DNA of 64,000 nucleotides, from assembly GCA_964291285.2 (NCBI GenBank), contig OZ219787.1, forward strand, positions 1,280,001-1,344,000, given 5' to 3'. The notes beneath the pieces were generated by a model. The model was not told where the DNA came from. It made no database searches and was given only the letters and a program-made list of their open reading frames with translations. Shown here in pieces: positions 31,770 through 48,144 of the stretch (its first letter is position 1; the number at the start of each line of letters is the position of its first letter). Made by a program: the position numbers and the translations under genes. The DNA comes from Alphaproteobacteria bacterium (GTDB lineage Bacteria; Pseudomonadota; Alphaproteobacteria; Bin95).

Positions 31770-31912
31770 CCCGGAACGCTACCAAAGCGTGCGGTCCGGG
31801 TTAAGCCGCGCCGGTCGGCCGGTCTTGCTCTCCACCGGCCTGCGGCAGTATCGGGCGCCGGGGATGGCTCCGTTTTGCGGGGGCAACAAAGGGGTGCGAC
31901 AATGTGTTCATG

Positions 31913-32155
31913 AAATTTAGGTAATATTTCTCTATTTCCGGTCTGAAGCAGGAAAACCCGTGATATGATGGGTTCGAGGTAGGCGGCATCCGGAGCCGCT
32001 TCCCGCCCGCGCCGGCCCGGTGCGGAACGACCCCGATTCAGCCGACAGACGAGGTGCGCCCTGCGCCTGCCTCGCGCACGCGCAATCAGGCGCGCGAACC
32101 GCGCCGGCGCAATGGCGCGCCCGCGCCCGCCCGCGATTGCGCGCGAATAAGGGTC
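31913..32155 (+). other. Conserved non-coding block, copy 1 (AT-rich box, extended -10, GC-rich leader)
   Basis: Homologous to the reverse complement of 47881-48144; box AAATTTAGGTAATATTTC at 31913, TGnTATGAT at 31961-31969, leader 31981-32155. Confidence 0.7.
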
Positions 32156-32271
32156 GCTCCCAAGCCGGGACGGCATGGCCGTCAAACCGAAGCGTAACCA
32201 AAGGGGATTATCCGTTTGACTAAATATCAGCCCGTCTCCTAGCCTGTGCTCTTCACAGCGGGAGATCAAGC

Positions 32272-33652
32272 ATGGCGAGGAAATCTGATAGGGTAGAAGG
32301 CAGGCGACGCAGCGGCGACGCAGCGGCGACGCAGCGGCGACGCAGCGGCGACGCAGCGGCGACGCAGCGGCGACGCAGCGGCGACGCAGGAAGCCAACTG
32401 GCGCAACCGCACCATCTGGACGCGCGACAATCTCCATGTCCTGAGAGGCATGAACAGCGCCACGGTCGATCTCATCTATCTCGACCCGCCCTTCAACTCC
32501 AACCGCACCTATAGCGCACCCATAGGCTCGGAGGCGGCCGGGGCTGCCTTCAAGGACTCATGGACCTTCGACGACGCGGACCGCGTCTATCTGGCACTGC
32601 TGCAAGAGCGTGACCCGACGACTTTCGCCATAATCGACGCGGCCCGGCTGGCGCACGGGCGCGGCATGGCGGCCTATCTCGGCATGATGGCGCAACGCCT
32701 CGTCGAAATGCGGCGTGTCCTGAAGCCGACCGGCAGCATCTATCTGCATTGTGACCCGTTCGCGTCGCATTATCTCAAGATGCTCATGGACGCGATTTTC
32801 GGACGCCTTAATCACCGGAACGAGATTATCTGGTGCTATACTGGCCCCGGCTCACCGCATATGCGCCAGTTCAACCGAAAGCACGATACAATCCACTGGT
32901 ATTCAGTCGGCGAGACATGGACCTTCAATGCCGACGCCGTGCGTATTCAGCACCATGGCAAGACCAAGGCGAATTTCAAAGACGGTTTGCGCGGTTCTGG
33001 ATTTATCGAGGGCGAATATGGGCTGACGGACGGCAAAGTCCCTGAAACATGGTGGCCGCAAGAGAAAGGAAATGGACTCGCCATAGCGCCCCGCCAAAAG
33101 GCGCAATATGTCGGCTATCCGACGCAGAAGCCGCTTGCCCTTCTGGACCGCATCATCAAGGCGTCGAGTAACGAGGGCGATGTCGTGCTGGACCCATTTT
33201 GCGGTTGCGCGACGGCCGCCGTGGCGGCGGAGCGGCTACAGCGCCAGTGGATCGGCATCGACATTTCCGCGAAGGCGGCCGAGCTCGTCACGACGCGCCT
33301 GCAAGGCATCCTCGACGAAATCCCGCTCTACAAGACCGGCGATGTTGTCCACAGGACGGACCAGCCGGGCCGCACGGACCTGGGAGACCTTCCCCACTAC
33401 CGGACGCACCTGGACTTGCTCTACGGCCAGCAGGAAGGCTTTTGCGGCGGTTGCGGGGAGCATTTCCGCAAGCGCAATCTGACGGTGGACCATATCGTCC
33501 CGCAAGCGCATGGCGGGACCGACCACCTTGAGAACCTTTGGCTGCTGTGCGGCGCCTGCAATTCGTCGAAGGGAACGCGCTCGCAAGAGCAATTCCTGAA
33601 AGAGCGTATGCAGAAGCGCGCCGCCCTGTTCCCGTGGCTGATAGAGGCGTGA
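32272..33652 (+). CDS. Beta-class N6/N4 DNA methyltransferase fused to a C-terminal HNH endonuclease; 5' end frameshifted at the repeat (open frame with a start only from 32450)
   Basis: IWTRDNLHVLRGM (upstream of ATG 32450), IYLDPPFNS, YLHCD, YPTQKP, VLDPFCGCAT; CGGC..VDHIVP..GG.DH..NL.LLC..CNSSKG. Confidence 0.88.
32303..32389 (+). repeat. 11-bp tandem repeat GGCGACGCAGC, about 8 copies
   Basis: Seven perfect units plus 10 of 11 bases of an eighth. Confidence 0.97.
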
Positions 33653-34621
33653 CTAGTATGGCCGCGCCCCGCTCGCCAGCCCGTTCTCGGCAATCAGCCG
33701 GGCGTAGGTCAGGCGCTTCCCGACCATGCCGGCCGCCAGTCCCGCCATTTGTGCCAGCGTCCCGGCTTCGCGGATGTTGTGCCGCCCGGCGAACTCCGCG
33801 ATGTAGCGGTGAAGGTGCTTCGGCGAGAACTTGTGATAGACGCCCTTGTGCGCCCGCTTCAACATGGCCCAGAAGCTCTCGATCCCGTTGGTATGCGCCT
33901 GCTGGCGGACATACTCGCCAGCGGAGTGATTGACCGCTTCATGCTGAAACCACACTTGCAGCGCCCGATAGACCGTCGCCTCGTCCGAATAGACCGTCGT
34001 GCCGATGCGGGCGTTGTGAGCGGCGAAGCCTGCCAGCGACGGCGCGTCCGCGTGCTGGACATGGCGGGCGCGAACCTGCTTCGTGCCCCGGTCCTTCACG
34101 CCAACGACAATGTCCTTGCCGACAGCGCCGCGACCCTCAAGGCTCTCCCGCTTCGCCTTGTGCATGTTCTTGCGCAGCCCGCCCAGATAGACCTCGTCCA
34201 CCTCTACCGGCCCGTCCATGGGCGGCTCGTCGTCGCGCTTGAAGGCTTCGCGGATGCGCTGGAGCATGAACCATGCGGTTGCCTGCCGGACGCCTATGTC
34301 CCGGCCCAGCTTCACGCTGGAGACGCCCTTGAGCGAAGTCAGGTGCAGGTAGATCGCCCAAACCCACTTGCGGAACGAGAGCTTGGACCGCTCCATGACG
34401 GTGCCGATGCGGACGCTGAAATGCCGCTTGCAGCCGGGGCAGTAGTAGGGCATCGGCGGGTTGCCGGTGCATTCAATCGTCTCGGTATGGCCGCAGCGCG
34501 GGCAATGGCGACCGTTCGGCCAGACCTTCGCCTCAAACCATTCGCGGGCGCTTTCCTCGGTCGGGAACATCTCTCCCAACTCCATGATGGTCACGCCTTC
34601 GCGGTAGTGCTTGCCAGCCAT
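33653..34621 (-). CDS. IS1595 family transposase
   Basis: Zn ribbon CPRCG/CPGCKRHFS, KGVSS, AWFM, VEVDEVY, YSDE, VNHS, HTNGIESFW, HL.RY..EF. Confidence 0.95.
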   Translation of the reverse strand: MAGKHYREGVTIMELGEMFPTEESAREWFEAKVWPNGRHCPRCGHTETIECTGNPPMPYYCPGCKRHFSVRIGTVMERSKLSFRKWVWAIYLHLTSLKGVSSVKLGRDIGVRQATAWFMLQRIREAFKRDDEPPMDGPVEVDEVYLGGLRKNMHKAKRESLEGRGAVGKDIVVGVKDRGTKQVRARHVQHADAPSLAGFAAHNARIGTTVYSDEATVYRALQVWFQHEAVNHSAGEYVRQQAHTNGIESFWAMLKRAHKGVYHKFSPKHLHRYIAEFAGRHNIREAGTLAQMAGLAAGMVGKRLTYARLIAENGLASGARPY

Positions 34622-34717
34622 GACGGCCTCCGTTCCGACTGCTTGAGTCAGAATATGGGGACTCGCCGTCATTTAGTCAAGCGGATAATCCCCTAACCAA
34701 AGGAGCCGCCGCACCCC

Positions 34718-34852
34718 ATGCCCATCATCGACCCCTGGTCGCCGGAGAACATCGAACAGCGCCGCCGGGACAGCCTCGACTGGCTCCAGAGGGCCGGACC
34801 CTTCAATGCGCCCGGAGACGCGGACTTCGCCCCGGACCATGACAATACATGA
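34718..34852 (+). CDS. Putative 44-aa micro-ORF (MPIIDPWSPENIEQ...)
   Basis: RBS AAAGGAG upstream; stop supplied by a CATGACA repeat; no family recognised. Confidence 0.35.
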   Translation: MPIIDPWSPENIEQRRRDSLDWLQRAGPFNAPGDADFAPDHDNT

Positions 34853-34864
34853 CATTCCATGACA
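34838..34864 (+). repeat. CATGACA x3 at 10-bp period
   Basis: CATGACAATACATGACATTCCATGACA. Confidence 0.9.
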
Positions 34865-35047
34865 TCCACGGTGGAGAGGACGATCCCGCCGCCCCGCGCA
34901 CGCGCGGGCGCGCATTATGCGCAGGCGCGGGACGCTCTTCCGGCAACAGGGGCGTCCGGAACCACGGCCCGACCAAGGAGGCTGCAATGCCTTGCGAACG
35001 ACCGGAGCGGAGACCGGCCTGGAGTGGGCCCCTTGGGTCGGACAGTT

Positions 35048-35842
35048 TCACGCGGCATTTTTGACAGGGTTGCGTTGTTGTTTCTCCTCGAAGCGGTTTG
35101 GGCTCAGATATCCGAGGGCGGAGTGCAGGCGTCTGTGGTTGTAGCTGTCGATGAAGCGTGGCAGTTGCCTTGCGACGTCATCGGCGGTCTCGAAGGCCAT
35201 GGGATAGACGCCTTCGACCTTCAGGGTTTTCATGAAGCTCTCCATCATGGCGTTGTCGTAGGGGTTGGCTCGTCGTCCCATGGAGCCGACCATCCCGTGT
35301 TTGTCGAGCCGGGTCCGGTAGGCATGGGCGGCGTATTGCGAGCCCCTGTCGGAGTGGTGGATGCAGCCGGGCTGAGGGCTTCGGTTCCCGATCGCCTTGT
35401 CGAGCGCCGCGAGCGTCAGGCGCGCGTCGATGCGTTGCCCGAGCGCGTAGCCGACAATGCGGCGCGACCAGGCGTCCATGACCGCCGCCAGATAGACGAA
35501 GCCGTCCAGGATGGCGATGTAGGTCAGGTCGGCGACCCAGAGCCGGTTCGGGCCCTCGACCTCGCAGTCCCGGGACCGGTCCGGGAAGACCGGCCCGTCG
35601 TGGCCGCTGTCCGTGGTGGCGACAAAGCGGCGCTTGCGCGGCGGCTGCAGGGCGTGTTCGCGCATCAGCCGCCTGACCTTCTTGTGGTTGACGGTCCGGC
35701 CCCGGTGGCGAAGTTCCGCCTGCATGCGCCGCCAGCCATAGGCCTCGAACTCGTCCTTGATCTCGTGCATCGCCTCGACCAGGGCGGTGTCGTCGACCGG
35801 GCTCTGCGGCTCGCGGTAACAGGTGGAGCGCGCGATCCCCAT
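35048..35842 (-). CDS. IS3 transposase OrfB (DDE integrase core)
   Basis: YGWRR, NHKKVRRLM, WVADLTY, HHSDRGSQY, DNAMMESF, RRLHSALGY.SP. Confidence 0.93.
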   Translation of the reverse strand: MGIARSTCYREPQSPVDDTALVEAMHEIKDEFEAYGWRRMQAELRHRGRTVNHKKVRRLMREHALQPPRKRRFVATTDSGHDGPVFPDRSRDCEVEGPNRLWVADLTYIAILDGFVYLAAVMDAWSRRIVGYALGQRIDARLTLAALDKAIGNRSPQPGCIHHSDRGSQYAAHAYRTRLDKHGMVGSMGRRANPYDNAMMESFMKTLKVEGVYPMAFETADDVARQLPRFIDSYNHRRLHSALGYLSPNRFEEKQQRNPVKNAA

Positions 35843-36192
35843 CAGTCGGCATCCTTCGGCAACGGAGAGGCCTCGGGGCCGGCGATCACGGACATGGGCG
35901 CGCGCCTCGACCGCCGTCCTTGCCGCAAAGCCCCCTTTAGGAACTCCAGCTCCGCGGCCTGCCGGCCGACCAGCCGTTCGAGCGTCGCGATCCGGGCCTC
36001 ATACGCCCGGAGCGTGTCAGCCGCCTCGGCCTCCTCATCGAAGGCGCCGGCCTCGTATTTCTCCAGCCACAGCCGGATCAGGGTGCGAGACAGGTCATGA
36101 CGGCGGGCCAGACCGTAAAACGTCTCGCCTGCCAGATACTCCTCAACGACCTGGCGCTTGAAGGCCATGCTGTGCGTGCGGTGCTTCCTCAT
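35842..36192 (-). CDS. IS3 transposase OrfA (HTH)
   Basis: HSMAFKRQVV..LARRHDLSR.LIR.W, leucine-zipper-like LERLVGRQ..ELEFLK; stop overlaps the orfB start. Confidence 0.88.
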   Translation of the reverse strand: MRKHRTHSMAFKRQVVEEYLAGETFYGLARRHDLSRTLIRLWLEKYEAGAFDEEAEAADTLRAYEARIATLERLVGRQAAELEFLKGALRQGRRSRRAPMSVIAGPEASPLPKDAD

Positions 36193-36273
36193 CGGCGTCG
36201 ATCCTTCCAATGACCGCGCACCTGTCAATTTCCTACAACAAAACTGTCCGAGACCAGGGGCCCACTCCAGCCC

Positions 36274-36300
36274 CATGACAAAACATGACATTCCATGACA
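36274..36300 (+). repeat. CATGACA x3 at 10-bp period
   Basis: CATGACAAAACATGACATTCCATGACA, 1 mismatch to the 34838 copy. Confidence 0.9.
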
Positions 36301-36612
36301 TGGCGCGAGGGAGTCGCTGTCGCCCCCATCCGTCGCCCCCAGGCGGAGAAGCCGGGGCCTCAAGCGGCCGGACCTCCGCTGCATGGAGGACCCGGCTCGC
36401 CCTGCGGGCGTCCGGGGCGACGAAAAGGGGGGCGGAGACCGGCCGGGACAGCTTCCAACCGGCGGCTGTCGGTATAGTTCCAAGCGGGTTGCGAGTCTGC
36501 GGGTGCTCTTGCTATGTTGGAGGACTGACGGGTTTGGAGGCTCGTTCAGGCGTCAGGCCGGCGCAGGTTGCCGGTCCAAGGGGATTCAAACAACAATCAT
36601 GGGAGTGCAAAC

Positions 36613-37647
36613 ATGAAGATCGTGCGTCTGGCATGCGGCGTAGCCGCTGCGGCCATGGTGGGAGGCGTCGCCATGTCCGCTTCCGCCGCAGATGAGGTGC
36701 TCTGGAACTTCTCCGCCTGGGGCAAGCCCCGCGCCTTTACCAAGGGCATCGATGCGATGAGCGAGTACCTCGCCGAGAAATCGGGCGGCAACTTCAAGCT
36801 CAAGATCCATTACGGCGAGGCGATCTCGCCTTCGAAAGAGAACATCGACGGCATCAAGATCGGCAGCCACGAAGCTGCGATGATGTGCACCTCCTACCAT
36901 CCCGGCAAGAACCCGGCCGGCACGGTGCTCGACCTGCCGTTCCTGCCCATCTCCGACCTGACGGTGCAGGCGAAGGTGCATGAGGACTTCATCGGGCATC
37001 CGGAGTTCAAGAAGGAGATGAAGCGCTGGAACGCCATCCCGATCTTCTCCGGCATCCTGCCGCAATATGAGGCGATGGGCGTCGGCGACCCGGCCAGGAG
37101 CGCGGCGGACTTCAAGGGCCTGAGGGTGCGCGGCCTCGGCGGCATCGGCCAGTTCTTCGACAAGCTGGGCGCGGTTCCGACCACGGTAACGGCGTCGGAA
37201 AGCTACACGGCGCTCGAACGCGGCACCATCCAGGTGATGACCTTCCCCTACAGCTACGCCTTCGGCGCCTACAGGCACCACGAAGTCGCCAAGTGGTACA
37301 CGGAAGGCATGGCGCTGGGCTCGGTCTTCTGCCCGCAGGTCATGAGCGTCACCGCCTACAACGCGCTGCCGGACGAATACCGGGCGTTGTTCAACGACGA
37401 CATGAAGTGGAACTCCTACAACACGCTGATCTCCGCCTACAAAGAGGCCGACAAGAAGTGGATCCCGATCTACGAAAAGGCCATGGAGCGGGTAGAGTTC
37501 AGCAAGGAGCAACGTGACGAGTTCGTGAAGATCGGGGCGCAGCCCGTTTGGGACGAGTGGGTGGCAAACAACAAGGAAAAGCTTCCCGCTCAAGAGCTTC
37601 TCGACTTCGTTCTCGAGCGTGCCGCACACCACAACAAGGAAGCGTAG
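36613..37647 (+). CDS. dctP: TRAP substrate-binding protein
   Basis: Signal peptide; LDLPF, FKGLRVR, LGAVP, YTALERG. Confidence 0.88.
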   Translation: MKIVRLACGVAAAAMVGGVAMSASAADEVLWNFSAWGKPRAFTKGIDAMSEYLAEKSGGNFKLKIHYGEAISPSKENIDGIKIGSHEAAMMCTSYHPGKNPAGTVLDLPFLPISDLTVQAKVHEDFIGHPEFKKEMKRWNAIPIFSGILPQYEAMGVGDPARSAADFKGLRVRGLGGIGQFFDKLGAVPTTVTASESYTALERGTIQVMTFPYSYAFGAYRHHEVAKWYTEGMALGSVFCPQVMSVTAYNALPDEYRALFNDDMKWNSYNTLISAYKEADKKWIPIYEKAMERVEFSKEQRDEFVKIGAQPVWDEWVANNKEKLPAQELLDFVLERAAHHNKEA

Positions 37648-37673
37648 AGGGCCGTAGTCCTCGCAAGTCTGGG

Positions 37674-37701
37674 TGGGGCCGTTCCGTCGCGAACGGCCCC
37701 A
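37674..37701. terminator. Hairpin between dctP and dctQ (stabilising or attenuating)
   Basis: TGGGGCCGTTC-cgtcgc-GAACGGCCCCA, perfect 11-bp stem. Confidence 0.6.
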
Positions 37702-37737
37702 TTCTATTGTTTGCCACAAGGGGAGGAAGCGAAGTCT

Positions 37738-38394
37738 ATGGCTCAAGCCCAGACACGGAACGGGCGCCAGAACAGCACTTTGTCGGCTATAGATCGCGCC
37801 TTCAGTCGCGTGGAGGATGCCGTCACGCTTTTTGCGGCGGCAGTTATCTTCGTATTGATGCTGTTTGTCGTCTGCGAAGTCATCGGAAGATACGTCTTCA
37901 ACAGGCCGATTCCGGGAGCGATCGACTGGATTGAAGTCTATATGGCGATCTTCGCTTTCCTTCCTGCCGCATATGCGCAAAGGCTGGGCGTGCATGTCCG
38001 CATGGAACTCGTCGTCGCAAAGATGCGCGGCAGATTGTTGTGGGCCGTCGAATGTTTCGCCGTCTGCATCGGCGTCGTCTATTGCCTCATCATCATCGAC
38101 AAGAGCTGGGAGCACTTCCTGAGGTCCGTCATAGAAGGCGACAGCACGATCGACGTGCAGCTCCAGACCTGGCCCGGAAAGCTGGTCGTCCCCATTGCGC
38201 TCGTGCTGCTTTGCATACGGCTGATCATCCAGGTGTGGGGCTACGGACGGCTGGCTCTCGATCCCGACAAGGCTCCCCAGGCGGTTCCGGTGATACTGGA
38301 CGCCGCTGAGCATGCGAGAGCCGAGATCGAAGAGGTCATGGGAAGAGAAACCGACGATTCGACGGATCCGCCTGACGGCGGCTCGAAGGCATAG
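37738..38394 (+). CDS. dctQ: TRAP small permease
   Basis: GRYVFNRPI, AYAQ..HVRME, about 4 TM. Confidence 0.88.
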   Translation: MAQAQTRNGRQNSTLSAIDRAFSRVEDAVTLFAAAVIFVLMLFVVCEVIGRYVFNRPIPGAIDWIEVYMAIFAFLPAAYAQRLGVHVRMELVVAKMRGRLLWAVECFAVCIGVVYCLIIIDKSWEHFLRSVIEGDSTIDVQLQTWPGKLVVPIALVLLCIRLIIQVWGYGRLALDPDKAPQAVPVILDAAEHARAEIEEVMGRETDDSTDPPDGGSKA

Positions 38395-38405
38395 GGGGCG
38401 CAATC

Positions 38406-39722
38406 ATGGATCCGTTCAACGCAGGTCTTGTATCGGTCGCGGTCATCATCGGGATGGTCGTGCTCGGCGTGCGCGTCGCCTACGCATCCGGAATTGCAGG
38501 CGTGGTCGGGTTGATCATGCTGCGGGGTTACGACCCCGGCGCCGGCCTCGCCGGTCTGCTCGCCCATTCACAGGTCAGCCATGTCACCCTCTCGGTGCTG
38601 CCGATGTTCATCCTCATCGGCTTCCTGGCATTCTATGCCGGACTGACGCGAAGCGCGTTCTATGCGGCCAGATGCTGGCTCGGCACCCTGCCCGGCGGGC
38701 TCGCCGTTGCAACCGTGTTTGCAACTGCCGGTTTCGCTGCGGTGTCCGGCGCCTCGACGGCGACAGCCGCCGTGTTCAGCCGCGTCGCGATCCCGGAGAT
38801 GCTGAAATACGGCTACGAACGCAGTCTGGCAGCGGGCGTCGTCGCCGCCGGCGGCACGCTTGCATCGCTCATCCCGCCGAGCGCCATCCTGGTGATCTAC
38901 GCCATCATCGTCGAGGAATCGGTGGGCGCCCTGCTGCTTGCGGGCTTCATACCGGGCGCGCTTTCCGCGGTGATTTACGCAGTGCTGATCGTCTTCCGCT
39001 GCAAGCTGAACCCCAAGCTGGGCGCGCCCGTCTCGGCGGTTCCGCTGGCCGAAAAGTTCCGGTCCCTGATTGGCGCCTCGGGCATCTTCTTCGTGATCTT
39101 CATCATCCTGGGCGGCATCTACACGGGCGTGATGACCCCGACCGAGGTCGGCGGCGTCGCCGCATTCGTGATCTTCCTGATTGCGCTTGCGAAGCGCAAT
39201 ATGAGCCTCGGAAACCTGCGCGAATCGCTCATGGAGACCGCGAAGCTCACGGTTTTCATCTTCACGATCATCTGGTCGATCCTGATCTATGTGCGGTTCC
39301 TCGGCTTCTCGGGCCTGCCGGAGGCGTTCGCCACATTCATCGTCAGTATCGACGTGCCGCCCATCGTCGTGATGATCCTGATCCTGCTCGCCTATGTCGT
39401 GCTCGGCATGTTCATGGACGGCATCGGGATGCTGTTGCTGACCCTGCCGGTCGTCTATCCGGCGGTCACGGCGCTCGGCTACGACCCGGTCTGGTTCGGC
39501 ATCATCATCGTCAAGATGGTGGAGGTCTGCCTGGTCACGCCGCCCATCGGCCTCAATTGCTTCGTGGTCAACGGCGTCAGACCGGACATTCCGCTCGAGG
39601 AAGTCTTCAAGGGCATCTGGCCCTTCTTCGTGGCGGACATCATCACGGTCGCCGTGCTCGTCGCCTTCCCCGGCATCGTGCTCTGGCTGCCGCGGTTGAT
39701 GATCCAGAACATCACCGCATAG
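38406..39722 (+). CDS. dctM: TRAP large permease
   Basis: FAAVSGAS, GGTLASLIPPS, TPTE, TPPIGLN. Confidence 0.92.
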   Translation: MDPFNAGLVSVAVIIGMVVLGVRVAYASGIAGVVGLIMLRGYDPGAGLAGLLAHSQVSHVTLSVLPMFILIGFLAFYAGLTRSAFYAARCWLGTLPGGLAVATVFATAGFAAVSGASTATAAVFSRVAIPEMLKYGYERSLAAGVVAAGGTLASLIPPSAILVIYAIIVEESVGALLLAGFIPGALSAVIYAVLIVFRCKLNPKLGAPVSAVPLAEKFRSLIGASGIFFVIFIILGGIYTGVMTPTEVGGVAAFVIFLIALAKRNMSLGNLRESLMETAKLTVFIFTIIWSILIYVRFLGFSGLPEAFATFIVSIDVPPIVVMILILLAYVVLGMFMDGIGMLLLTLPVVYPAVTALGYDPVWFGIIIVKMVEVCLVTPPIGLNCFVVNGVRPDIPLEEVFKGIWPFFVADIITVAVLVAFPGIVLWLPRLMIQNITA

Positions 39723-39746
39723 AGCGGGGCCGGCGCGGTTTTCCGC

Positions 39747-41303
39747 TCAGGAAAGCCGCGCCGCCAGCCCCATCGGCTCGTCGCGGAAGAGCGCGGCCGG
39801 CATTTCGCGCAGATCGTCGGCAATGCGGGGCCGGAAGGCCATCCGCGCCAGCACGTCGCGTTCGAGATCGACGCCCGGCGCAATTTCGACGACCACCGGC
39901 CCGGCCTCCTCGATGCGGAAGACGCAACGCTCGGTCACCGCCATGATCGTCTGCCCGCGCGCGAGGCCGGCGCGGGCGTTGAAGCTCACCTGCTCCACCG
40001 CTTCCACGAACTTGACCGGGGCGCCGTCGCGCCGGATGTCGAGGCGGCCGCCGGCGGCCCGGATGTCGGTCTCGCCGGCCGTGAACTGGCCGCAGAAAAC
40101 GACCCGCTTCGCGCCCTGGGTTACATTGAAGAAGCCGCCTATGCCGGGAATGCGCGCCTTCAGCTTCGACACATTGACATTGCCGGCGGCGTCCAGCTCC
40201 GCCATGCCAACGAAGGTTATGTCCAGACCGCCACCGTCATAGAAGTCGAACTGGTAGGTGTTGTCGATGACCGAACTCGGATTGATCGCGGCGCCGAAGG
40301 AAAGCCCGTAGGCCGGATAACCGCCCGTGGCACCGGATTCGACCGTGAGCGTGAAGGCGTCACCGCAGCCCTCCTCGCCCGCCACCGTCGCCACATATTC
40401 GGGCGCGCCCACGCCGAGATTGACCACGTCGTCCCGGCGGAGCTCCATCGCCGCGCGCCGGCCGATCACCTTCTTGACCGACAACGGCTGCGGCGGGCGG
40501 GCGCTCAGGTCCGCGCGCACCTCGCCCGAGAACACCGGGTCGTAGGCTGTCGCGAATGTCTGCGGGTGGTTCTCCGGCCGCGCGACGACGACCCGGTCCA
40601 CGAGATGGCCCGGAATCACCACCCGCCTCGGATCGAGCGAGCCGCGCTCCGCAATGCGCTCGACCTGCGCCAGCACGATGCCGCCGGAGTTCCGCACCGC
40701 CTGCGCGAAGCTCGGCCCCTGGAAGGTGCCGATCTCGCGCTCCATGGTGATGTTGCCGTCCGGGTCCGCCGTCGTGCCGCGCAGCAGGCCGGCGTCGAGC
40801 CGCATGGAGGGGTAGAACAGCCAATCCCGCCCGCTGAGCCGCACGCGCTCCACATAGTCTTCGACGGTGCGGGCGTTCACCTTGCCGCCGCCATGTTCGG
40901 GATCGACGAAGGTGCCGAGGCCCACATGGGTCACGAGGCCTGGCCGCCCGGCAGCGATCTCCCGGTAGAGCTGGACGATCGCGCCGAGCGGCAGCAGGTA
41001 ACCTTCGATCTCATTGTCGATCAGCCGGCGCTGGAGCATCCGGTTGAGATTGAGATAGGAGGTGACGAGCCGGCGGATCATCCCGTCGTGACGCAGACGG
41101 TCGAGGCCGCGCCCGCGTGTGTCGCCGGAGCCGGTGGAAGCGATGACGGTCAGCCCGCCGGGCTCGCCCGTTTCCAGGAACCGCGCCTCCAGCGCCAGCA
41201 GCAGCTCTTCCGGGCAGACCGAGCCGACGAAGCCGTCCACGCCCAACACCGCGCCGGAAGGCACCAGCGCCGCCGCCGCCGCAGCCGTCACGATCTTGCT
41301 CAT
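39747..41303 (-). CDS. Acyl-CoA:acetate/propionate CoA-transferase (YdiF/Pct type)
   Basis: PG..THVGLGTFVDP, VNLGVGAP, TVESG, FDFYDGGGLD, GNVNVS, TERCVF. Confidence 0.9.
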   Translation of the reverse strand: MSKIVTAAAAAALVPSGAVLGVDGFVGSVCPEELLLALEARFLETGEPGGLTVIASTGSGDTRGRGLDRLRHDGMIRRLVTSYLNLNRMLQRRLIDNEIEGYLLPLGAIVQLYREIAAGRPGLVTHVGLGTFVDPEHGGGKVNARTVEDYVERVRLSGRDWLFYPSMRLDAGLLRGTTADPDGNITMEREIGTFQGPSFAQAVRNSGGIVLAQVERIAERGSLDPRRVVIPGHLVDRVVVARPENHPQTFATAYDPVFSGEVRADLSARPPQPLSVKKVIGRRAAMELRRDDVVNLGVGAPEYVATVAGEEGCGDAFTLTVESGATGGYPAYGLSFGAAINPSSVIDNTYQFDFYDGGGLDITFVGMAELDAAGNVNVSKLKARIPGIGGFFNVTQGAKRVVFCGQFTAGETDIRAAGGRLDIRRDGAPVKFVEAVEQVSFNARAGLARGQTIMAVTERCVFRIEEAGPVVVEIAPGVDLERDVLARMAFRPRIADDLREMPAALFRDEPMGLAARLS

Positions 41304-41338
41304 GGATTGCCTCCCGGCGAGACGGAAACCGCAGCGGG

Positions 41339-42121
41339 TCAGGCCGCTTGCGCCGGCACGGCTGTGAAGCCGACCCGCCCGAGAGGACCGAAGTCCGCGA
41401 GCACCTGCGCGCCGGTCCGAATTGCGGCGACGCCGGTGCAGGTGCCGGTGGTTACGCGGTCACCGGCCCGAAGCCCGTCGCCGCGCTCGCGCAAATGGTT
41501 GGCGAGCCAGAGGAGCACCAGCGCCGGATCGCCCAGCGCCAGCGCTCCGGTGCCCTCGGCCAGCGTTTCTCCATCCACCGAGAGCGCCACGCCGGCGTCA
41601 CGCAGATCCCGGTCCCGCCAGTCGGGCCGCACCTCCCCCTCGACGAATGCGATATTGGCGCCGAAATCGGCCGTGACGCCCTCCCGGCCGAGCCCGGCGA
41701 GCCCGCCCTCGAAGCGCGAGCCGACGACTTCGATGCCTCCGGCAATGCCCATCACCGCGGCCAACACCTCGGCGCGCTCGAACGGCGCCTCGCGCGGCGG
41801 CAGGCCCTCGCCCATGACGAAGACGAACTCGCCTTCGACGGCCGGCGCATGCGCGGCGAAGACGGGCACTTCCGCCCCGTGCTCGAAGCAGAAGGGCTCT
41901 AGCAGCGCGCCCGCGCCGGGCCTGTCCGTGCCGAGCTTGCGCCGGGCTTCGGCGCTGGTTGATCCGACCTTCCAGCCGGCGCGGGGACAACCCGACGCCC
42001 GCACCGCCCTTTCCTGGACCCGGTAGGCGTCGTCCAGACCGGCGATGTCCCGCCTTGCCGCCACCTCGACCAGGGTTCCGTCCCGCCGGGCCTCCCACAA
42101 GCGTTGCGCCAGATCGGCCAT
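41339..42121 (-). CDS. 2-keto-4-pentenoate hydratase-like (FAH superfamily)
   Basis: AY.VQ, GWKVG.TS, VEGEF, IEVVGSR, LGDP..L.WLAN, VTTGT. Confidence 0.85.
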   Translation of the reverse strand: MADLAQRLWEARRDGTLVEVAARRDIAGLDDAYRVQERAVRASGCPRAGWKVGSTSAEARRKLGTDRPGAGALLEPFCFEHGAEVPVFAAHAPAVEGEFVFVMGEGLPPREAPFERAEVLAAVMGIAGGIEVVGSRFEGGLAGLGREGVTADFGANIAFVEGEVRPDWRDRDLRDAGVALSVDGETLAEGTGALALGDPALVLLWLANHLRERGDGLRAGDRVTTGTCTGVAAIRTGAQVLADFGPLGRVGFTAVPAQAA

Positions 42122-42271
42122 CCAGTGCCTGCCTTTCTTCCGCTTCGACGAACCGTGCCGCAACCCTATCCCGCCCGACTGCCGTGCGAAAGGACATCCC
42201 TGTTCCGCCCGAGGTCTTTTCCCGCGCCTGAATCTCTTTAGGCTTCCCCGGCGTCACGAAGGGGGGCGGCG

Positions 42272-43100
42272 ATGAAGCTCGGCATTTTCAGCTACAACAC
42301 GGAATACGGAACCCGGCCCGACGAGCTGGCGAAGGCTGCCGAGGAGCGGGGCTTCGAGTCCTTCTGGGTCGGCGAGCACACGCACATTCCGGCAAGCCGC
42401 GACACGCCCTATCCGGGCGGCGATCCGCTGCCGAAGCCCTACTACCACATGGCCGACCCCTTCGTGTCGCTGATGGCGGCGGCGGGCGCGACTTCGACGA
42501 TCAAGGTCGGCACGGCCGTCTGCCTCGTCATCGAGCGCGACCCCATCGTGCTGGCGAAGGAAGCGGCGACGCTCGACTACCTCTCGGGCGGGCGGCTGTT
42601 GCTCGGCATCGGCGGCGGCTGGAACGCGGAGGAGATGGCCAATCACGGCACCGACTTCACGCGGCGCTGGCAGGTGCTGCGGGAGCGCATCGAGGCCATG
42701 AAGGCGATCTGGACGGAGGAAGAAGCAAGCTACGAGGGCGAGTTCGTGCGCTTCGAGCGCATCGTCTCCTATCCGAAGCCGGTCCAGCGCCCGCATCCGC
42801 CCATCATCTATGGCGGCGCCACGCCGCTCGGGCGGAAGCGGACGGTGCGCTACTGCGACGGCTGGATGCCCATCGACGTGCTGCTGGACGATTTCCCCGC
42901 CGCCGTCGCCGAACTCGACCGCCTGGCCGAGGAGGCGGGCCGCGATCCCGACTCCATCTCGGTCTCGGTGTTCGCCTTCAACGGCGCCAATGAGGAAGCG
43001 CTCAGGCGGCTCGCGGAGAACCCGCGCATCGAACGCGCCGTGCTGGTGGCACCCCGCTACACGGAGAAGGCCCTGCCTTTCCTGGACGCGTTCGGCGCGC

Positions 43101-43120
<20 letters not shown>
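42272..43120 (+). CDS. LLM-class probable F420-dependent oxidoreductase
   Basis: AEERGFES.WV.EHTHIP, DPFV.L, ERDPI.LAK..ATLD.LSGGR, GWN.EEM..HG, PKPVQ.PHPP. Confidence 0.88.
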
Positions 43121-44744
<1,624 letters not shown>

Positions 44745-44857
44745 CGGCGCTCCCCGATAGCCGTGAATGGCATCCTTTGCATCGTCGAATCCTTCCCCGA
44801 ATGCCGGGCCGCTCGCTTGACCCGTCGGCGCGGAGCGGCTAGAAGCCGCCCCTTATC

Positions 44858-44933
<76 letters not shown>

Positions 44934-44961
44934 TTCCCTTCCGCGTTTTCCAGTCGACCGG

Positions 44962-45273
44962 TCAGGCGTCCGTCAGCACGTGGATCGTCCGGTTGGCGAG
45001 CAGGTCCTTCACCTTCGCCGCATAGGCGGCCATATGGGCAGACGCGCCATGCGCGCGGAGCGCGTCCAGGCTCGCCCATTTCTCCACGACGACAAAGGTG
45101 TCCTCGCCGTATTTCGTCTGGATCGCGCCCGCTTCGGCGTCCACGGCCGCGCCGTATTCGATGCAGCCGTCCTCCGCATGCACTGCCGGCACATTGGCGT
45201 TGAAGGCTTCGAGGACCTCGGCGCGGCGGCCGGGCTTGGCCTGGATGACGGCGATGACATGGACCCTGGACAT
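44962..45273 (-). CDS. Antibiotic biosynthesis monooxygenase (YgiN-like)
   Basis: AKPG.R, VHAEDGCIEY, VVVEKW.S..AL.AH...HM. Confidence 0.85.
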   Translation of the reverse strand: MSRVHVIAVIQAKPGRRAEVLEAFNANVPAVHAEDGCIEYGAAVDAEAGAIQTKYGEDTFVVVEKWASLDALRAHGASAHMAAYAAKVKDLLANRTIHVLTDA

Positions 45274-45388
45274 GGATGTTCTCCTGTTCCCGCCGCCCCC
45301 TCGGCAACGGTTGTCCGGCTGTTATTGACCGCTTTCGGCCTCCGGGGTCAAGATTGGGACAATTCCCGGTTCCCGGAGGCCATACCCG

Positions 45389-47533
45389 ATGCCCGAAGCG
45401 CGCGCCCTCTGCTCTTCCTGCGACATTTACTGCCAGGTCCTGGTCGAGACCGCAGGCGGACAGGTCGCCCGGGTCAAGGCGATGGACCCGAGGCCGGGCC
45501 AGGCCAACATCTGCATGAAGGGCGTGCATGCGCCCGCCGGCTTTACCCATTCCGACCGGGTGTTGCATCCGCTCCGCCGCAAGGGGCCGCGCGGCTCCGG
45601 GGAATGGGAGCGGGTCGGCTGGGACGAGGCGCTCGACGACATCGCCGAACGCCTTCAGCGGGCCGTGGACCGCTACGGGCCGGAGGGGTTCGCCGTCTCG
45701 ACAAGCTCCTGGAACACGCAGACCGATCAGGGCATGTGCCGGCGCTTCATGAACCTTGTCGGCTCGCCCAACTGGATTTCCGGCGTGGCGCTCTGCGCGG
45801 GCAACACAGCCGCCGTCAACCGCCTGGTCTATGGCTGGTTCCCCTATCCGGATTTCACGAAGACGCAGTGCATCGTGCTGTTCGGGCACAATCCGAAGCC
45901 GCATTCCTGGACGCCGGAATACAACGCCATCCGCCGGGCGCAGGAGCGCGGCGCGAAGCTGATCGTGCTCGACCCGCGCCGGTCGGAGAACGCCGAGCTC
46001 GCCGACATCTGGCTGCCGCTCAGGGTCGGCACCGACGCCGCCATGTGTCTCGGCTGGCTCAAGGTCATCATGGACGAGGGCCTCTGGGACAAGGATTTCG
46101 TCAAGCGCTGGACGGCGGGCTTCGACGAGCTTCGCAGGCGCGTGGACGAGTTCCCGCTGGACCGGGTCGCCGAGATCACCGGCGTTCCGGCCGACCGGAT
46201 CGCGGAGGCGGCGCGCCTCTATGCGCAGTCCGGCCCGGCGGTGATTCCCTGGTCTCCGATCACCGACCAGCAGCGCAACTCGACCTCCGCCATCCGCCTC
46301 CAGGCGATCCTGCGCGCCATCTGCGGCAATCTCGACGTTCCGGGCGGGGAGGTGCTGCACGGTTTCCACCCGCGCATCGTGCCGGAGACCGACCTGGAGT
46401 TTCACGACGCGCTGCCGGAAGCGCAGAAGGCCAAACAACTGGGGTCCGACACGCACCCGGTGTTCACCTATCGCGGCGCCGCGCCCCTGGAAGAGCCGAC
46501 GCTTCGCGTCTGGGGGCGGCGATACGCCAATCTCGTCTCCGGCTGCTACATGGCGACGCCCTCGGCCGTCTTCCGCGCCATGGCGGACGGCGAGCCATAT
46601 CCGGTCAAGGCGTTCTTCGCGCTCGGCAACAACACGCTGCTGAGCTTCGCCAACATGCAGCTGATCCAAAGGGCGCTCCTGAACCAGGACCTGCTCGTCG
46701 CCTTCGAGCACATGAAGACGCCGACGGCGGCGCTGTGCGATTACATCCTGCCGGGCGATGCCTGGACGGAACGCAAGGCGCTGGCGGACGGCTTCGGCTG
46801 GACCGCGATCTGCCGCACTTCGCAGCAGGCGACGGAGCCGCCGGGAGAGGCGCGCAGCGTTTACGATTTCTGGCGCGGCCTGGCGGTGCGGTTCGGCCTC
46901 GGCAACCATTTCCCGTGGGAAACGGCGGACGCCGTGCTGGACCATCGCGTGGCAGGCCTCGGCATGGATTTCGACAGCTTCGCACGGGAGCACGCCGCGC
47001 ATACGGACGGCCTCCGGTTCCGGAAATACGAAAAGACGGGCTTCGCGACGCCCTCCGGCAAGGTCGAGCTTTCCTCCTCCGTGCTGGCCGAATTCGGCTT
47101 CGACCCCTTGCCCTACTGGCGCGAGGAACCGGCGGGGCCGGACGACATGCCGCTTCGCCTCTTCACGGGCCTGCGCGAGGACGCCTATTTCCAGACCGGC
47201 CACCGCCATATCGCGGCGCTCAGGGCCCGCGCGCCCGAGCCGCTGCTGTTCCTGCATCCGGAAGATGCAAGGGAAGCCGGCATCGCCGACGGCGAGCCCG
47301 CCGTCGCGGAAACGGCGCAGGGGCGGGTGCATATGAAGGCTGCCGTCCGCAACGACATGCAGAAGGGCCTGGTGCGGATACCCCACGGCTGGTGGCTGCC
47401 CGAGGTCGGGCTGGAGAGCGCCTGGGAGATGGCCGACGCCCAGCTCTGTCCCGACGACGAGGATTTCCTCGACCGCGAACAGGGCATCCCGCACTTCAAG
47501 GGCATCCCCTGCCGGGTCGCGCCGGCGGCTTAG
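45389..47533 (+). CDS. Mo/W-bisPGD enzyme, acetylene hydratase-like
   Basis: CSSCDIYC..ICMK [4Fe-4S] motif, RRFMNLVGSPNW, CAGNT, GTDAA, IPW..TDQQRNS.SAIR; no Tat leader. Confidence 0.85.
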   Translation: MPEARALCSSCDIYCQVLVETAGGQVARVKAMDPRPGQANICMKGVHAPAGFTHSDRVLHPLRRKGPRGSGEWERVGWDEALDDIAERLQRAVDRYGPEGFAVSTSSWNTQTDQGMCRRFMNLVGSPNWISGVALCAGNTAAVNRLVYGWFPYPDFTKTQCIVLFGHNPKPHSWTPEYNAIRRAQERGAKLIVLDPRRSENAELADIWLPLRVGTDAAMCLGWLKVIMDEGLWDKDFVKRWTAGFDELRRRVDEFPLDRVAEITGVPADRIAEAARLYAQSGPAVIPWSPITDQQRNSTSAIRLQAILRAICGNLDVPGGEVLHGFHPRIVPETDLEFHDALPEAQKAKQLGSDTHPVFTYRGAAPLEEPTLRVWGRRYANLVSGCYMATPSAVFRAMADGEPYPVKAFFALGNNTLLSFANMQLIQRALLNQDLLVAFEHMKTPTAALCDYILPGDAWTERKALADGFGWTAICRTSQQATEPPGEARSVYDFWRGLAVRFGLGNHFPWETADAVLDHRVAGLGMDFDSFAREHAAHTDGLRFRKYEKTGFATPSGKVELSSSVLAEFGFDPLPYWREEPAGPDDMPLRLFTGLREDAYFQTGHRHIAALRARAPEPLLFLHPEDAREAGIADGEPAVAETAQGRVHMKAAVRNDMQKGLVRIPHGWWLPEVGLESAWEMADAQLCPDDEDFLDREQGIPHFKGIPCRVAPAA

Positions 47534-47635
47534 GGCACGCTTCGACCCGGATGGCCCGACGGTCATTCGGGACAGAACCGTCCGAGGCCGGCATCCGGTG
47601 GGGAAGGCGCGGCTGCGGGGATACGCTTGCGGAAG

Positions 47636-47713
47636 TGTCATGAGATGTCATGTTCTGTCATGCGGGGGCCGCGCGGTGTCATGATGTGTCATGATGTGTC
47701 ATGTTTCGTCATG
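47636..47713 (-). repeat. Two clusters (3+4) of CATGACA-type repeats at 10-bp period
   Basis: TGTCATG at 47636, 47646, 47656, 47677, 47687, 47697 and CGTCATG at 47707. Confidence 0.9.
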
Positions 47714-47825
47714 GTCGGCCATGCGAACGGCGCATAGCCCGTAGCCGTTCCGGGCATGCGGCCATCGTTTCAGTCTGGTGCTCCGGGTATTCCATCCGGT
47801 TTCCCCGGCCTTGCATCTTCGGCAT
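47709..47825 (-). CDS. Putative 38-aa micro-ORF (MPKMQGRGNRMEYP...)
   Basis: RBS AAAGGAG 5 nt upstream; stop within the first CATGAC repeat. Confidence 0.35.
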   Translation of the reverse strand: MPKMQGRGNRMEYPEHQTETMAACPERLRAMRRSHGRP

Positions 47826-47880
47826 GGTCTCTCCTTTCCGTCCGTCGTCGCTCCGTTCTTCCCGCCGCCCGGCGCGGCGG

Positions 47881-48144
47881 GACCCTTTTTCGCGCGTAAT
47901 GCGCGCCGGCGCCCGCGCGCCCGTCGGCGCGCGTTTCGCGGCGGCGCGGTTTGCGCGCCTGATTGCGCCTGCGCCCGCGAGCCGGACGCAGGGCGCACTT
48001 TGCCCGTTGGCAGAATCGGGGGCTTTTTTCGCGCCGGCGCCGGCGCGAAGGAACGGGGCGGTGTCCGGACGCCGCCTCGTCGGGACCAATATGTCTTCAC
48101 GATTCTCAGAAGTCAAATAATTTTAGGAATTATTACGAAAATTT
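47881..48144 (-). other. Conserved non-coding block, copy 2, with sigma70-like promoter
   Basis: TTGACT-17-CATATT on the minus strand (48116-48088); box AAATTTTCGTAATAATTC; leader homologous to 31981-32155. Confidence 0.7.

Follow-up and report, generated by a model that had tools for sequence, protein, structure and literature searches.

We analyzed a 64,000-nucleotide stretch of an alphaproteobacterial genome (contig OZ219787.1, positions 1,280,001 to 1,344,000; below, the window) that contains two copies of a dispersed repeat. Copy A is on the + strand at 31913-34864, and copy B is on the - strand at 48144-47636. A preliminary description had treated 31913-48144 as a single object with two copies, but these are two separate units with ordinary genes between them, and a genome-wide search found about 100 copies. 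As reconstructed from their sequences, the units are 0.35-1.4 kb and consist of an AT-rich promoter of the sigma-70 type, a leader, a ribosome-binding site (RBS) with a cargo open reading frame (ORF), and a 3' block of CATGACA repeats. The leader is GC-rich, is 200-250 nt long, begins with a hairpin, and has an invariant core; the 3' block, or array, has two to eight CATGACA motifs. The intact units encode a homolog of the small subunit of phage terminases (TerS).

Copy A begins with an AT box, AAATTTAGGTAATATTTC (31913-31930, +), which is kept across copies and lies upstream of the -35 hexamer, at the position of an UP-element or operator. The promoter-like site at 31942-31969 (+) has a weak -35 (TCTGAA, where other copies have TTGCAT or TTGACA) and an extended -10, TG-n-TATGAT, at 31961-31969, with the hexamer TATGAT at 31964-31969 and the TG upstream of it. 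The 5' part of the GC-rich leader (31976-32202, +) includes the P1 hairpin (31982-31999), the invariant core GCGCAATCAGGCGCGCGAACCGCGCC (32080-32105), and a GGGTC block (32140-32155). The leader is then split by an insertion sequence (IS) of the IS1595 family (32203-34693). It resumes at 34694-34717 with the RBS AAAGGAG (34699-34705), which is followed by a 44-amino-acid (44-aa) ORF (34718-34852, +) and an array at 34838-34864 (+), with CATGACA every 10 bp (34838, 34848, and 34858). The ORF stops at a TGA within the second of these repeats. This ORF joins MPIIDP to WSPENIEQRRRDSLDW...APDHDNT, and we recognize it as an internal-deletion remnant: the first six codons of the TerS-like gene plus its C-terminal tail. 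Copy A is a deleted TerS-type copy that was hit by the IS1595-family element.

Copy B has the same layout on the - strand. Its AT box, AAATTTTCGTAATAATTC (48144-48127), matches that of copy A at 15 of 18 positions and is kept in the ortholog of copy B in a related genome, G006; each box ends 33 nt before the -10 hexamer. A promoter scan of copy B found TTGACT-17-CATATT at 48116-48088, with CATATT at 48093-48088 (0.1 such sites are expected in shuffled sequences). The leader (47826-48081) includes the P1 hairpin (48076-48057), the core (47968-47943), the GGGTC block (47896-47881), and the RBS AAAGGAG (47837-47831). It is followed by a 38-aa micro-ORF (47825-47709) with a pre-array palindrome and by a bipartite array of 3+3 CATGACA at 10-bp spacing (47703-47677 and 47662-47636). 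Every feature that the preliminary description listed for the architecture of the two copies holds, including the paired AT boxes and their distance to the -10, the shared leader blocks, the RBS in both, and the stop codons that fall within a CATGAC(A/G) repeat; indels of 1, 2, 3, 11, and more nucleotides do destroy any common frame in the leader. It had also called the two micro-ORFs unrelated, each beginning with Met-Pro. They do begin that way, but the one in copy A derives from the TerS-like gene. Among 12 short-class units like copy B, indels of 20, 2, and 1 nt imply that the peptide is not conserved beyond its first residues. Copy B is a short form, and its micro-ORF is probably not conserved for coding. 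On the opposite strand of copy B, at 47860-47882 (+), the GGGTC block and the next hairpin form a terminator-like stem, which is followed by CCCTTTTT; this stem could keep antisense transcription out of the leader.

In the 6.13-Mb genome, a profile of the promoter and leader has 100 matches (23, 27, 39, 8, and 3 on the five contigs). CATGACA occurs 901 times, versus about 316 expected from base composition. We identified 122 arrays that together contain 445 CATGACA, and 252 of 323 successive pairs are spaced by exactly 10 bp. A triple-array pattern occurs 91 times, while the reversed pattern, as a control, does not occur. A leader lies on the same strand less than 1300 nt upstream of 96 of the 122 arrays. 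Of 91 terminal triples, 65 have AAA as the first spacer, and 82 have a pyrimidine triplet (TTC, TCT, TCC, CTT, or TTT) as the second. Besides single rows, there are bipartite arrays of 2+3 or 3+3 motifs. A strict 7-bp motif in every helical turn suggests that several DNA-binding domains sit on one face of the helix. Also, three repeats at 10-bp spacing supply each of the three frames with a TGA as well as an ATG, so translation of any cargo stops at the array.

To define the boundaries of the units, we aligned ten full-length copies with their flanks and compared 72 units all against all. Homology has its 5' limit in the AT-rich promoter region, where the start points of different copies agree to within about 30 nt, and it ends 0-13 nt past the last CATGACA; the exceptions at the 3' end are units that have the same IS after them. 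Some subfamilies, including that of copy A, share about 100 nt more upstream: the extension of copy A (31814-31912, +) is also found before units C3_2066268- and C2_77161-. Copies are mosaics with differing break points. Full units are not found in tandem: the 600 nt downstream of an array never contain the start of another unit's leader. We also considered whether a single CATGA(A/C) at the 5' end might be a direct repeat of the array, but it is present in just 17 of 87 copies, 11 of them within the palindrome TTCATGAA, and we rejected it as too weak. Another repeat, with GGGTGACGGTCATGACACC-type units at 33-43-bp spacing, is present in three identical copies (G000 C2:12076, C3:1914958, and C5:11365); there is no leader nearby, and it probably belongs to an unrelated repeat family.

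Ten units carry an intact gene for a TerS-like protein of 329-336 amino acids. Residues 11-70 match Pfam's Terminase_2 (PF03592; E = 1.2e-10, 42.6 bits versus a cutoff of 26.1 bits). The protein also matches the terminase small-subunit families of PHROG (4e-12) and the DNA-binding domains of SF6-type terminases in PDB (2cmp, 3zqp, and 4zc3; E = 7e-6 for 2cmp and 4zc3), and it is 28-48% identical to the products of phage terS genes over residues 3-129. From these similarities, we identify it as a true homolog of the terminase small subunit, with an N-terminal helix-turn-helix (HTH). After the HTH come a helical middle region and a tail that is acidic or basic; low-complexity sequence makes up the C-terminal half. 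All 12 of the Terminase_2 matches in the genome are inside units, and the TerS homolog is the only DNA-binding protein that the repeat family encodes. When the 10 intact copies are compared (45 pairs), dN/dS comes to 0.25 in codons 1-170 and 0.29 in codons 171-270, with 0.63 in the variable tail, and although comparing intact copies only biases these ratios toward constraint, they indicate that the protein is under purifying selection.

We clustered the cargos of 82 units, which range from 77 to 1143 nt. Eighteen are of the TerS type (type I; 10 intact and 8 shortened), 57 are type II or short forms, and 7 are others, including one with an ordinary isochorismatase-like gene. The type II protein has about 190-235 amino acids and a well-conserved alignment; its intact forms, of about 192-234 aa, coexist with many short forms. 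It has no match in Pfam and no match in PDB at E < 2; among 1.84 billion proteins, it is matched by just 101 representative clusters, all of them internal to the lineage and many of them fragments. The two proteins are unrelated except for the tail PDHDKT, which is encoded by the array, and the first codons, M-x-x-x-D-P, which are part of a shared 5' block. In another genome of the genus, G008, minimal units have the array just 41-47 nt after the leader. Thus, as in nonautonomous families, there are many internal-deletion derivatives that keep both ends and fewer intact masters. Because the derivatives keep the ends and lose the cargo, the ends would be what matters in cis, and the persistence of both ends through a long series of decay argues for the ends as the object of copying or selection.

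We found the leader in 13 of the 16 other genomes of the genus and in none of 8 genomes from the family's two sister genera; 16 genomes from other families gave one weak match (E = 2e-4). The 17 genomes of the genus contain 91, 36, 81, 56, 85, 67, 61, 31, 98, 61, 18, 33, 7, and 129 triple arrays, with none in the other three, and the reversed-pattern control gave 0 in every genome. (In G011, which is a single contig of 4.6 Mb, 34 of the triple arrays are forward and 64 are reverse; in G000, the counts are 48 and 43.) Terminase_2 is found in 12 of the 14 genomes with arrays and in none of the 3 without arrays and leaders, although these genomes are related and the counts are not independent observations. 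The two genomes with arrays but no TerS gene, G008 and G014, have 7 and 31 arrays, which are among the four lowest counts, versus 18-129 in the other twelve. The relatives that were retrieved by protein similarity are all metagenome-assembled and are labeled as Alphaproteobacteria or Rhodospirillaceae bacterium, with one from a sponge bin, and most of the DNA sequencing runs that hold this region are labeled as sponge metagenome. As judged from these genomes, the repeat family is restricted to one genus of sponge-associated bacteria. The relatives' cargo genes are annotated merely as "terminase small subunit" or as hypothetical, and the many such terminase annotations in this lineage should not be taken as prophages.

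More distant TerS homologs (52-61% identity) end in 10-bp-phased rows of (C/G)NTGAC(A/G), while two homologs at about 45% identity have no phased row. An orphan terS gene on plasmid pSR-2 of Skermanella rosea (L151 3965-4696) lies among metabolic genes, outside of any prophage. The sequence just upstream is AT-rich and promoter-like, but neither a long leader nor a CATGACA row is present. The Rhodospirillales may contain such orphan terS genes more widely.

Comparisons between species show both the absence of a unit and the constraint on one. In the relative G005, the genes that flank copy A (YggS-like and DctP-family) are just 122 bp apart, so the block from about 31814 to 36450 is absent there. 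The preliminary description had suggested looking for such an empty site. The alignment to G005 stops at 31813, which makes 31814 the approximate left limit of the block. In G007, a type I-like unit lies beside the same left gene, and the right-hand gene is 185 kb away. When we compared one 20-kb region to five relatives, we found breaks in synteny at units but no clean empty site. For copy B, the G006 ortholog lies between genes that are 94.7% and 94.3% identical to those in the window. Its leader is 92.1% identical, versus 78.5% for the micro-ORF and pre-array region and 81.4% and 76.5% for the outer spacers; the -35 and -10 hexamers are kept, the spacer between them has changed, and two of the six CATGACA repeats are missing. 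This is the pattern expected of a working promoter, whose activity we infer, and a constrained leader. The micro-ORF drifts like neutral spacer, and the suggestion of a small-peptide cassette finds no support in the short forms.

We tentatively favor, while stopping short of calling it probable, the view that these units are a genus-restricted family of dispersed cassettes that is selfish in origin and mostly decayed, with both ends acting in cis and the phased array as a putative site for the TerS-like protein. The protein would bind the array with one HTH per helical turn, in the way that has been proposed for the rings of SPP1/SF6 terminases on pac DNA; the array would double as a frame-independent translation stop for the cargo upstream; and the ends of the unit would be needed for propagation. 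Among the ideas in the preliminary description, a nonautonomous mobile element has held up best: the units are high-copy and dispersed, they have discrete ends, intact masters coexist with deletion derivatives that retain the ends, and G005 lacks the copy A block.

Several observations weigh against this view. First, neither cargo protein has a recognizable catalytic domain; no transposase, recombinase, HUH, or reverse transcriptase domain was found in them. Type I units encode Terminase_2 alone, and not the DDE, HUH, serine, or tyrosine enzyme of an insertion sequence. Second, in alignments of the ends, we found no inverted relation between the two ends of a unit: the 5' end is an AT-rich promoter and the 3' end is a row of direct repeats, without the terminal inverted repeats of a miniature inverted-repeat transposable element (MITE). 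Third, no target-site duplication is readable, since the intergenic DNA at the single empty site (in G005) has diverged so far that the ends of the unit cannot be fixed exactly. Fourth, the most similar pair of copies within the genome is about 97% identical at most, in contrast to 99-100% for the active IS families, so there is no sign of recent copying. Fifth, two unrelated proteins between the same two ends fit a shared frame for expression or recombination as well as they fit a transposon. Sixth, concerted evolution by gene conversion from other copies could give the same conservation of the leader. Finally, the leader core is not enriched over its flanks in an RNA library beyond what is seen in a DNA run: the depths are about 296 to 7 in RNA library X23 and about 5042 to 60 in DNA run X4. 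A bolder version of the selfish-cassette view, which we regard as doubtful, is that this is a new kind of selfish element in which a ring of domesticated TerS HTHs reads the phased row and drives copying or packaging with no classical transposase. If so, about 100 landing pads with promoters would be scattered through the genomes of this whole genus of sponge symbionts, where they would influence the insertion of ISs and genome rearrangement.

Alternatively, the units might be a module for RNA or expression that the host has recruited, and although this seems unlikely, it accounts for several features. The promoter and leader would make a structured RNA or a 5' untranslated region, for instance as a co-regulated multicopy RNA family, and the cargo would be secondary. 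The CAUGACA row would be the 3' tail, which would stop translation in all frames and provide a site for an RNA-binding factor. This would fit with the leader being the best-conserved part of the copy B ortholog (92.1% versus 76-81% for the spacers), with promoter hexamers that are kept in G006 while their spacer drifts, and with minimal units that have a promoter, a leader, and an array. In the P1 hairpin, across 137 sequences, 89.5% of cells pair, versus 42-55% with shifted partners, and both sides changed from GC to AT 12 times and from AT to GC 18 times. A few compensatory changes are also seen in two other hairpins.

However, the covariation is weak. For six hand-drawn hairpins, 87% of cells pair, versus 26-50% when they are slid, but the covariation score is 0.086, as compared to a mean of 0.071 for shuffles, and 21 of 500 shuffles reached it. 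RNAalifold on 16 complete short units gave 58 pairs, of which 3 are compensatory, and an unfavorable covariation term (+1.64). A consensus fold of 137 leaders from the profile alignment had almost no consensus pairs, and a MAFFT-based fold of 79 leaders found little. We therefore regard the stems as real inverted repeats, with weak covariation for an RNA fold. So, of the structured RNA that the preliminary description proposed, the hairpins stand and the covariation is marginal. Its statement that no named family is recognizable also stands for the RNA and DNA, but not for the cargo, which is a homolog of the terminase small subunit. At Rfam's gathering threshold, the only match in the whole window is a tRNA-Phe (GAA) at 44858-44933, between copies A and B, and when copy B and a complete type I unit were scanned permissively, the best score was 19.2 bits, versus a threshold of 52 bits, with all E > 0.6. 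Contigs from RNA libraries (X21-X23) cover the leader core and the arrays, but contigs cannot show starts or strands, and the depth of RNA is not above the pattern in DNA. Also, we found no intrinsic terminator after the array. Lastly, a family of about 100 copies that grade into decayed forms and have been hit by many ISs resembles junk more than a regulon.

It is quite unlikely that the units are dispersed pac-like sites. In this scenario, the TerS-like protein on the array would recruit the large terminase (TerL) of a phage, a satellite, or a gene transfer agent, leading to packaging of host DNA from about 100 chromosomal sites or to the diversion of an invading phage's terminase. The protein is truly homologous to TerS. 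The pac site of phage P1 has two sets of hexamer repeats, which the bipartite 2+3 or 3+3 arrays resemble. The arrays also sit where the terS-like gene ends, which is comparable to the location of pac sites within terS genes or next to them (PMC4737164). But no copy is beside a large terminase, as would be expected in a packaging module, and the homology between copies stops at the array. Across the genome, the large-terminase families PF03354, PF03237, and PF04466 are absent, and the sole large terminase is one match to TerL_nuclease, which is not adjacent to any unit. A related TerL is found in just 4 of the 17 genomes of the genus (3 of the 16 others), versus 14 with arrays; this lack of co-occurrence weakens the pac reading. 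Nor would pac sites explain how the units multiplied within a genome or why copies without the protein retain the promoter and leader. The TerL gene is in a small phage-like cluster (G000:C2:85300-92400; L095 11333-18390) with DUF5906 primase-like, HNH, capsid-family, and portal genes, which looks like a satellite or a prophage remnant.

The least plausible of these explanations is that the units are simply a recombination frame, in which the 5' block (the promoter, the leader, and the first ~8 codons) and the 3' block (the last ~5 codons and the array) are homology arms, cargos are swapped or deleted by homologous recombination or gene conversion, and genome rearrangement is a by-product: two unrelated proteins with common ends (the M-x-x-x-D-P start and the PDHDKT tail), mosaic copies with different break points, synteny blocks that end at units, and the ordinary isochorismatase-like gene in one unit would all fit, but cargo diversity is low (two main groups among the 82 units), exchange alone makes no new loci, and the exact 10-bp phase of the array is left without a reason.

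Turning to the genomic context of the units, we used a crude ORF caller to identify the neighbors of 72 of them. The upstream neighbor is co-oriented with the unit in 46 cases and opposite in 20, while the downstream neighbor is co-oriented in 35 and opposite in 36. Thus, units tend to sit past the 3' end of a gene, and their orientation gives no sign that they drive the gene that follows. As judged by GC skew, they are not biased with respect to replication: 54 of the 100 copies are co-oriented with the G-rich strand. Synteny blocks that this genome shares with five relatives end at units.

Units also draw insertions of at least three IS families with high specificity, and they coincide with breaks in synteny. 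A 1250-bp element of the IS3 family is found at 35020-36269 in the window and at nine other sites in the genome. A CATGACA array ends 4-6 bp from each of the eight full copies and from one of the two partial copies; for the second partial copy, the distance is 145 bp. The end of the array is a highly specific insertion target of this element. In many arrays without the IS, the same end sequence, TGGAG(T/C)GGGCC, follows 6 nt later. Another IS, with a 599-aa transposase-like ORF, has 49 copies, nearly all of them 99.5-100% identical (for example, C1:257756-260255). For 16 of the 49, a leader or an array is less than 400 bp away, and several of these copies are inserted at the same point just after the leader, although the units make up about 1% of the genome.

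The element that splits copy A, which the preliminary description had named as IS1595, has the hallmarks of that family: 23-bp inverted repeats, an 8-bp target duplication, TAACCAAA (32195-32202 and 34694-34701), and a transposase (33653-34672, -) with a Zn ribbon and Pfam's DDE_Tnp_IS1595 (1.1e-38). It also carries a passenger gene, a DNA methylase-HNH ORF (32450-33652, +; N6_N4_Mtase, 4e-46; HNH, 5e-14). Upstream of the passenger gene, at about 32301-32388, the 11-bp unit GGCGACGCAGC is repeated about 8 times in tandem. Directly after the array of copy A is a promoterless stretch of 155 bp (34865-35019, +), which we call module X. It has its own RBS and a 12-codon ORF, and normally its own array follows. 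In the window, the IS3-family element (with Pfam's rve, HTH_21, and HTH_Tnp_1) separates module X from its array of three CATGACA (36274-36300, +). The first ~60 nt of module X recur right after arrays at about eight other loci, with 85-97% identity. We rejected the idea that module X is a truncated leader because it has no significant similarity to the leader.

If the favored view of a selfish, mostly decayed cassette family is correct, then a chromosomal repeat family has taken over a protein for phage packaging as the part that reads sequence, and a new type of protein joins the short list of those associated with dispersed repeats in bacteria. In this uncultured genus of sponge symbionts, the units appear to shape how genomes are structured, and they place about 100 near-consensus promoters in intergenic DNA. 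They are also why assemblies of this lineage fragment: the relatives' contigs end inside units. A search of open-access papers and bioRxiv found no description of this repeat family, which does not prove that it is unpublished. Its themes, nonautonomous repeats and TerS with direct repeats nearby, are known; their combination was not described in the open-access literature that we found.

Three kinds of known systems are comparable. First, as in the gene cassettes of integrons, each cargo ORF ends in a block of repeats that is reminiscent of a recombination site, the first array can be succeeded by a second, promoterless module (X with an array of its own), and one cargo is an ordinary metabolic gene. 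Unlike those cassettes, the 3' block is a row of direct repeats rather than an imperfect palindrome, each unit has its own promoter, the units are dispersed instead of forming a single array beside an integrase, and the diversity of cargo is very low.

Second, the units are similar to MITE-like repeats and to repetitive extragenic palindromic (REP) or bacterial interspersed mosaic element (BIME)-like repeats in that they are intergenic and high-copy, their derivatives keep the ends and lose the middle, they are hot spots for IS insertion, and they are located at breaks in synteny. But the family does not have terminal inverted repeats; its two ends are unlike, with a promoter and a 200-nt leader at one end and a phased row of direct repeats at the other; and its putative master encodes no recognizable transposase.

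Third, the family resembles the TerS of SPP1 and SF6 (PF03592), which has a homologous N-terminal HTH and short direct repeats in or beside its gene. According to PMC4737164, the direct repeats in the pac site of SPP1 come in sets that extend over the promoters and the beginning of terS, and in the terminase ring of SPP1/SF6, adjacent HTH motifs are about one turn of B-DNA apart. The one-turn spacing of the CATGACA array matches this spacing of HTHs in the ring. In contrast to those phages, the repeat units have no adjacent large terminase or virion genes; in each genome, about 10 copies of the family are intact and about 90 have decayed, and there is a long conserved 5' leader; and the proteins are alike over just the first ~60-130 residues, beyond which the family's protein has a low-complexity C-terminal half. 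PMC4737164 describes the DNA-binding domain of the SF6 terminase as a weak and largely sequence-independent binder, whereas a strict heptamer is kept here.

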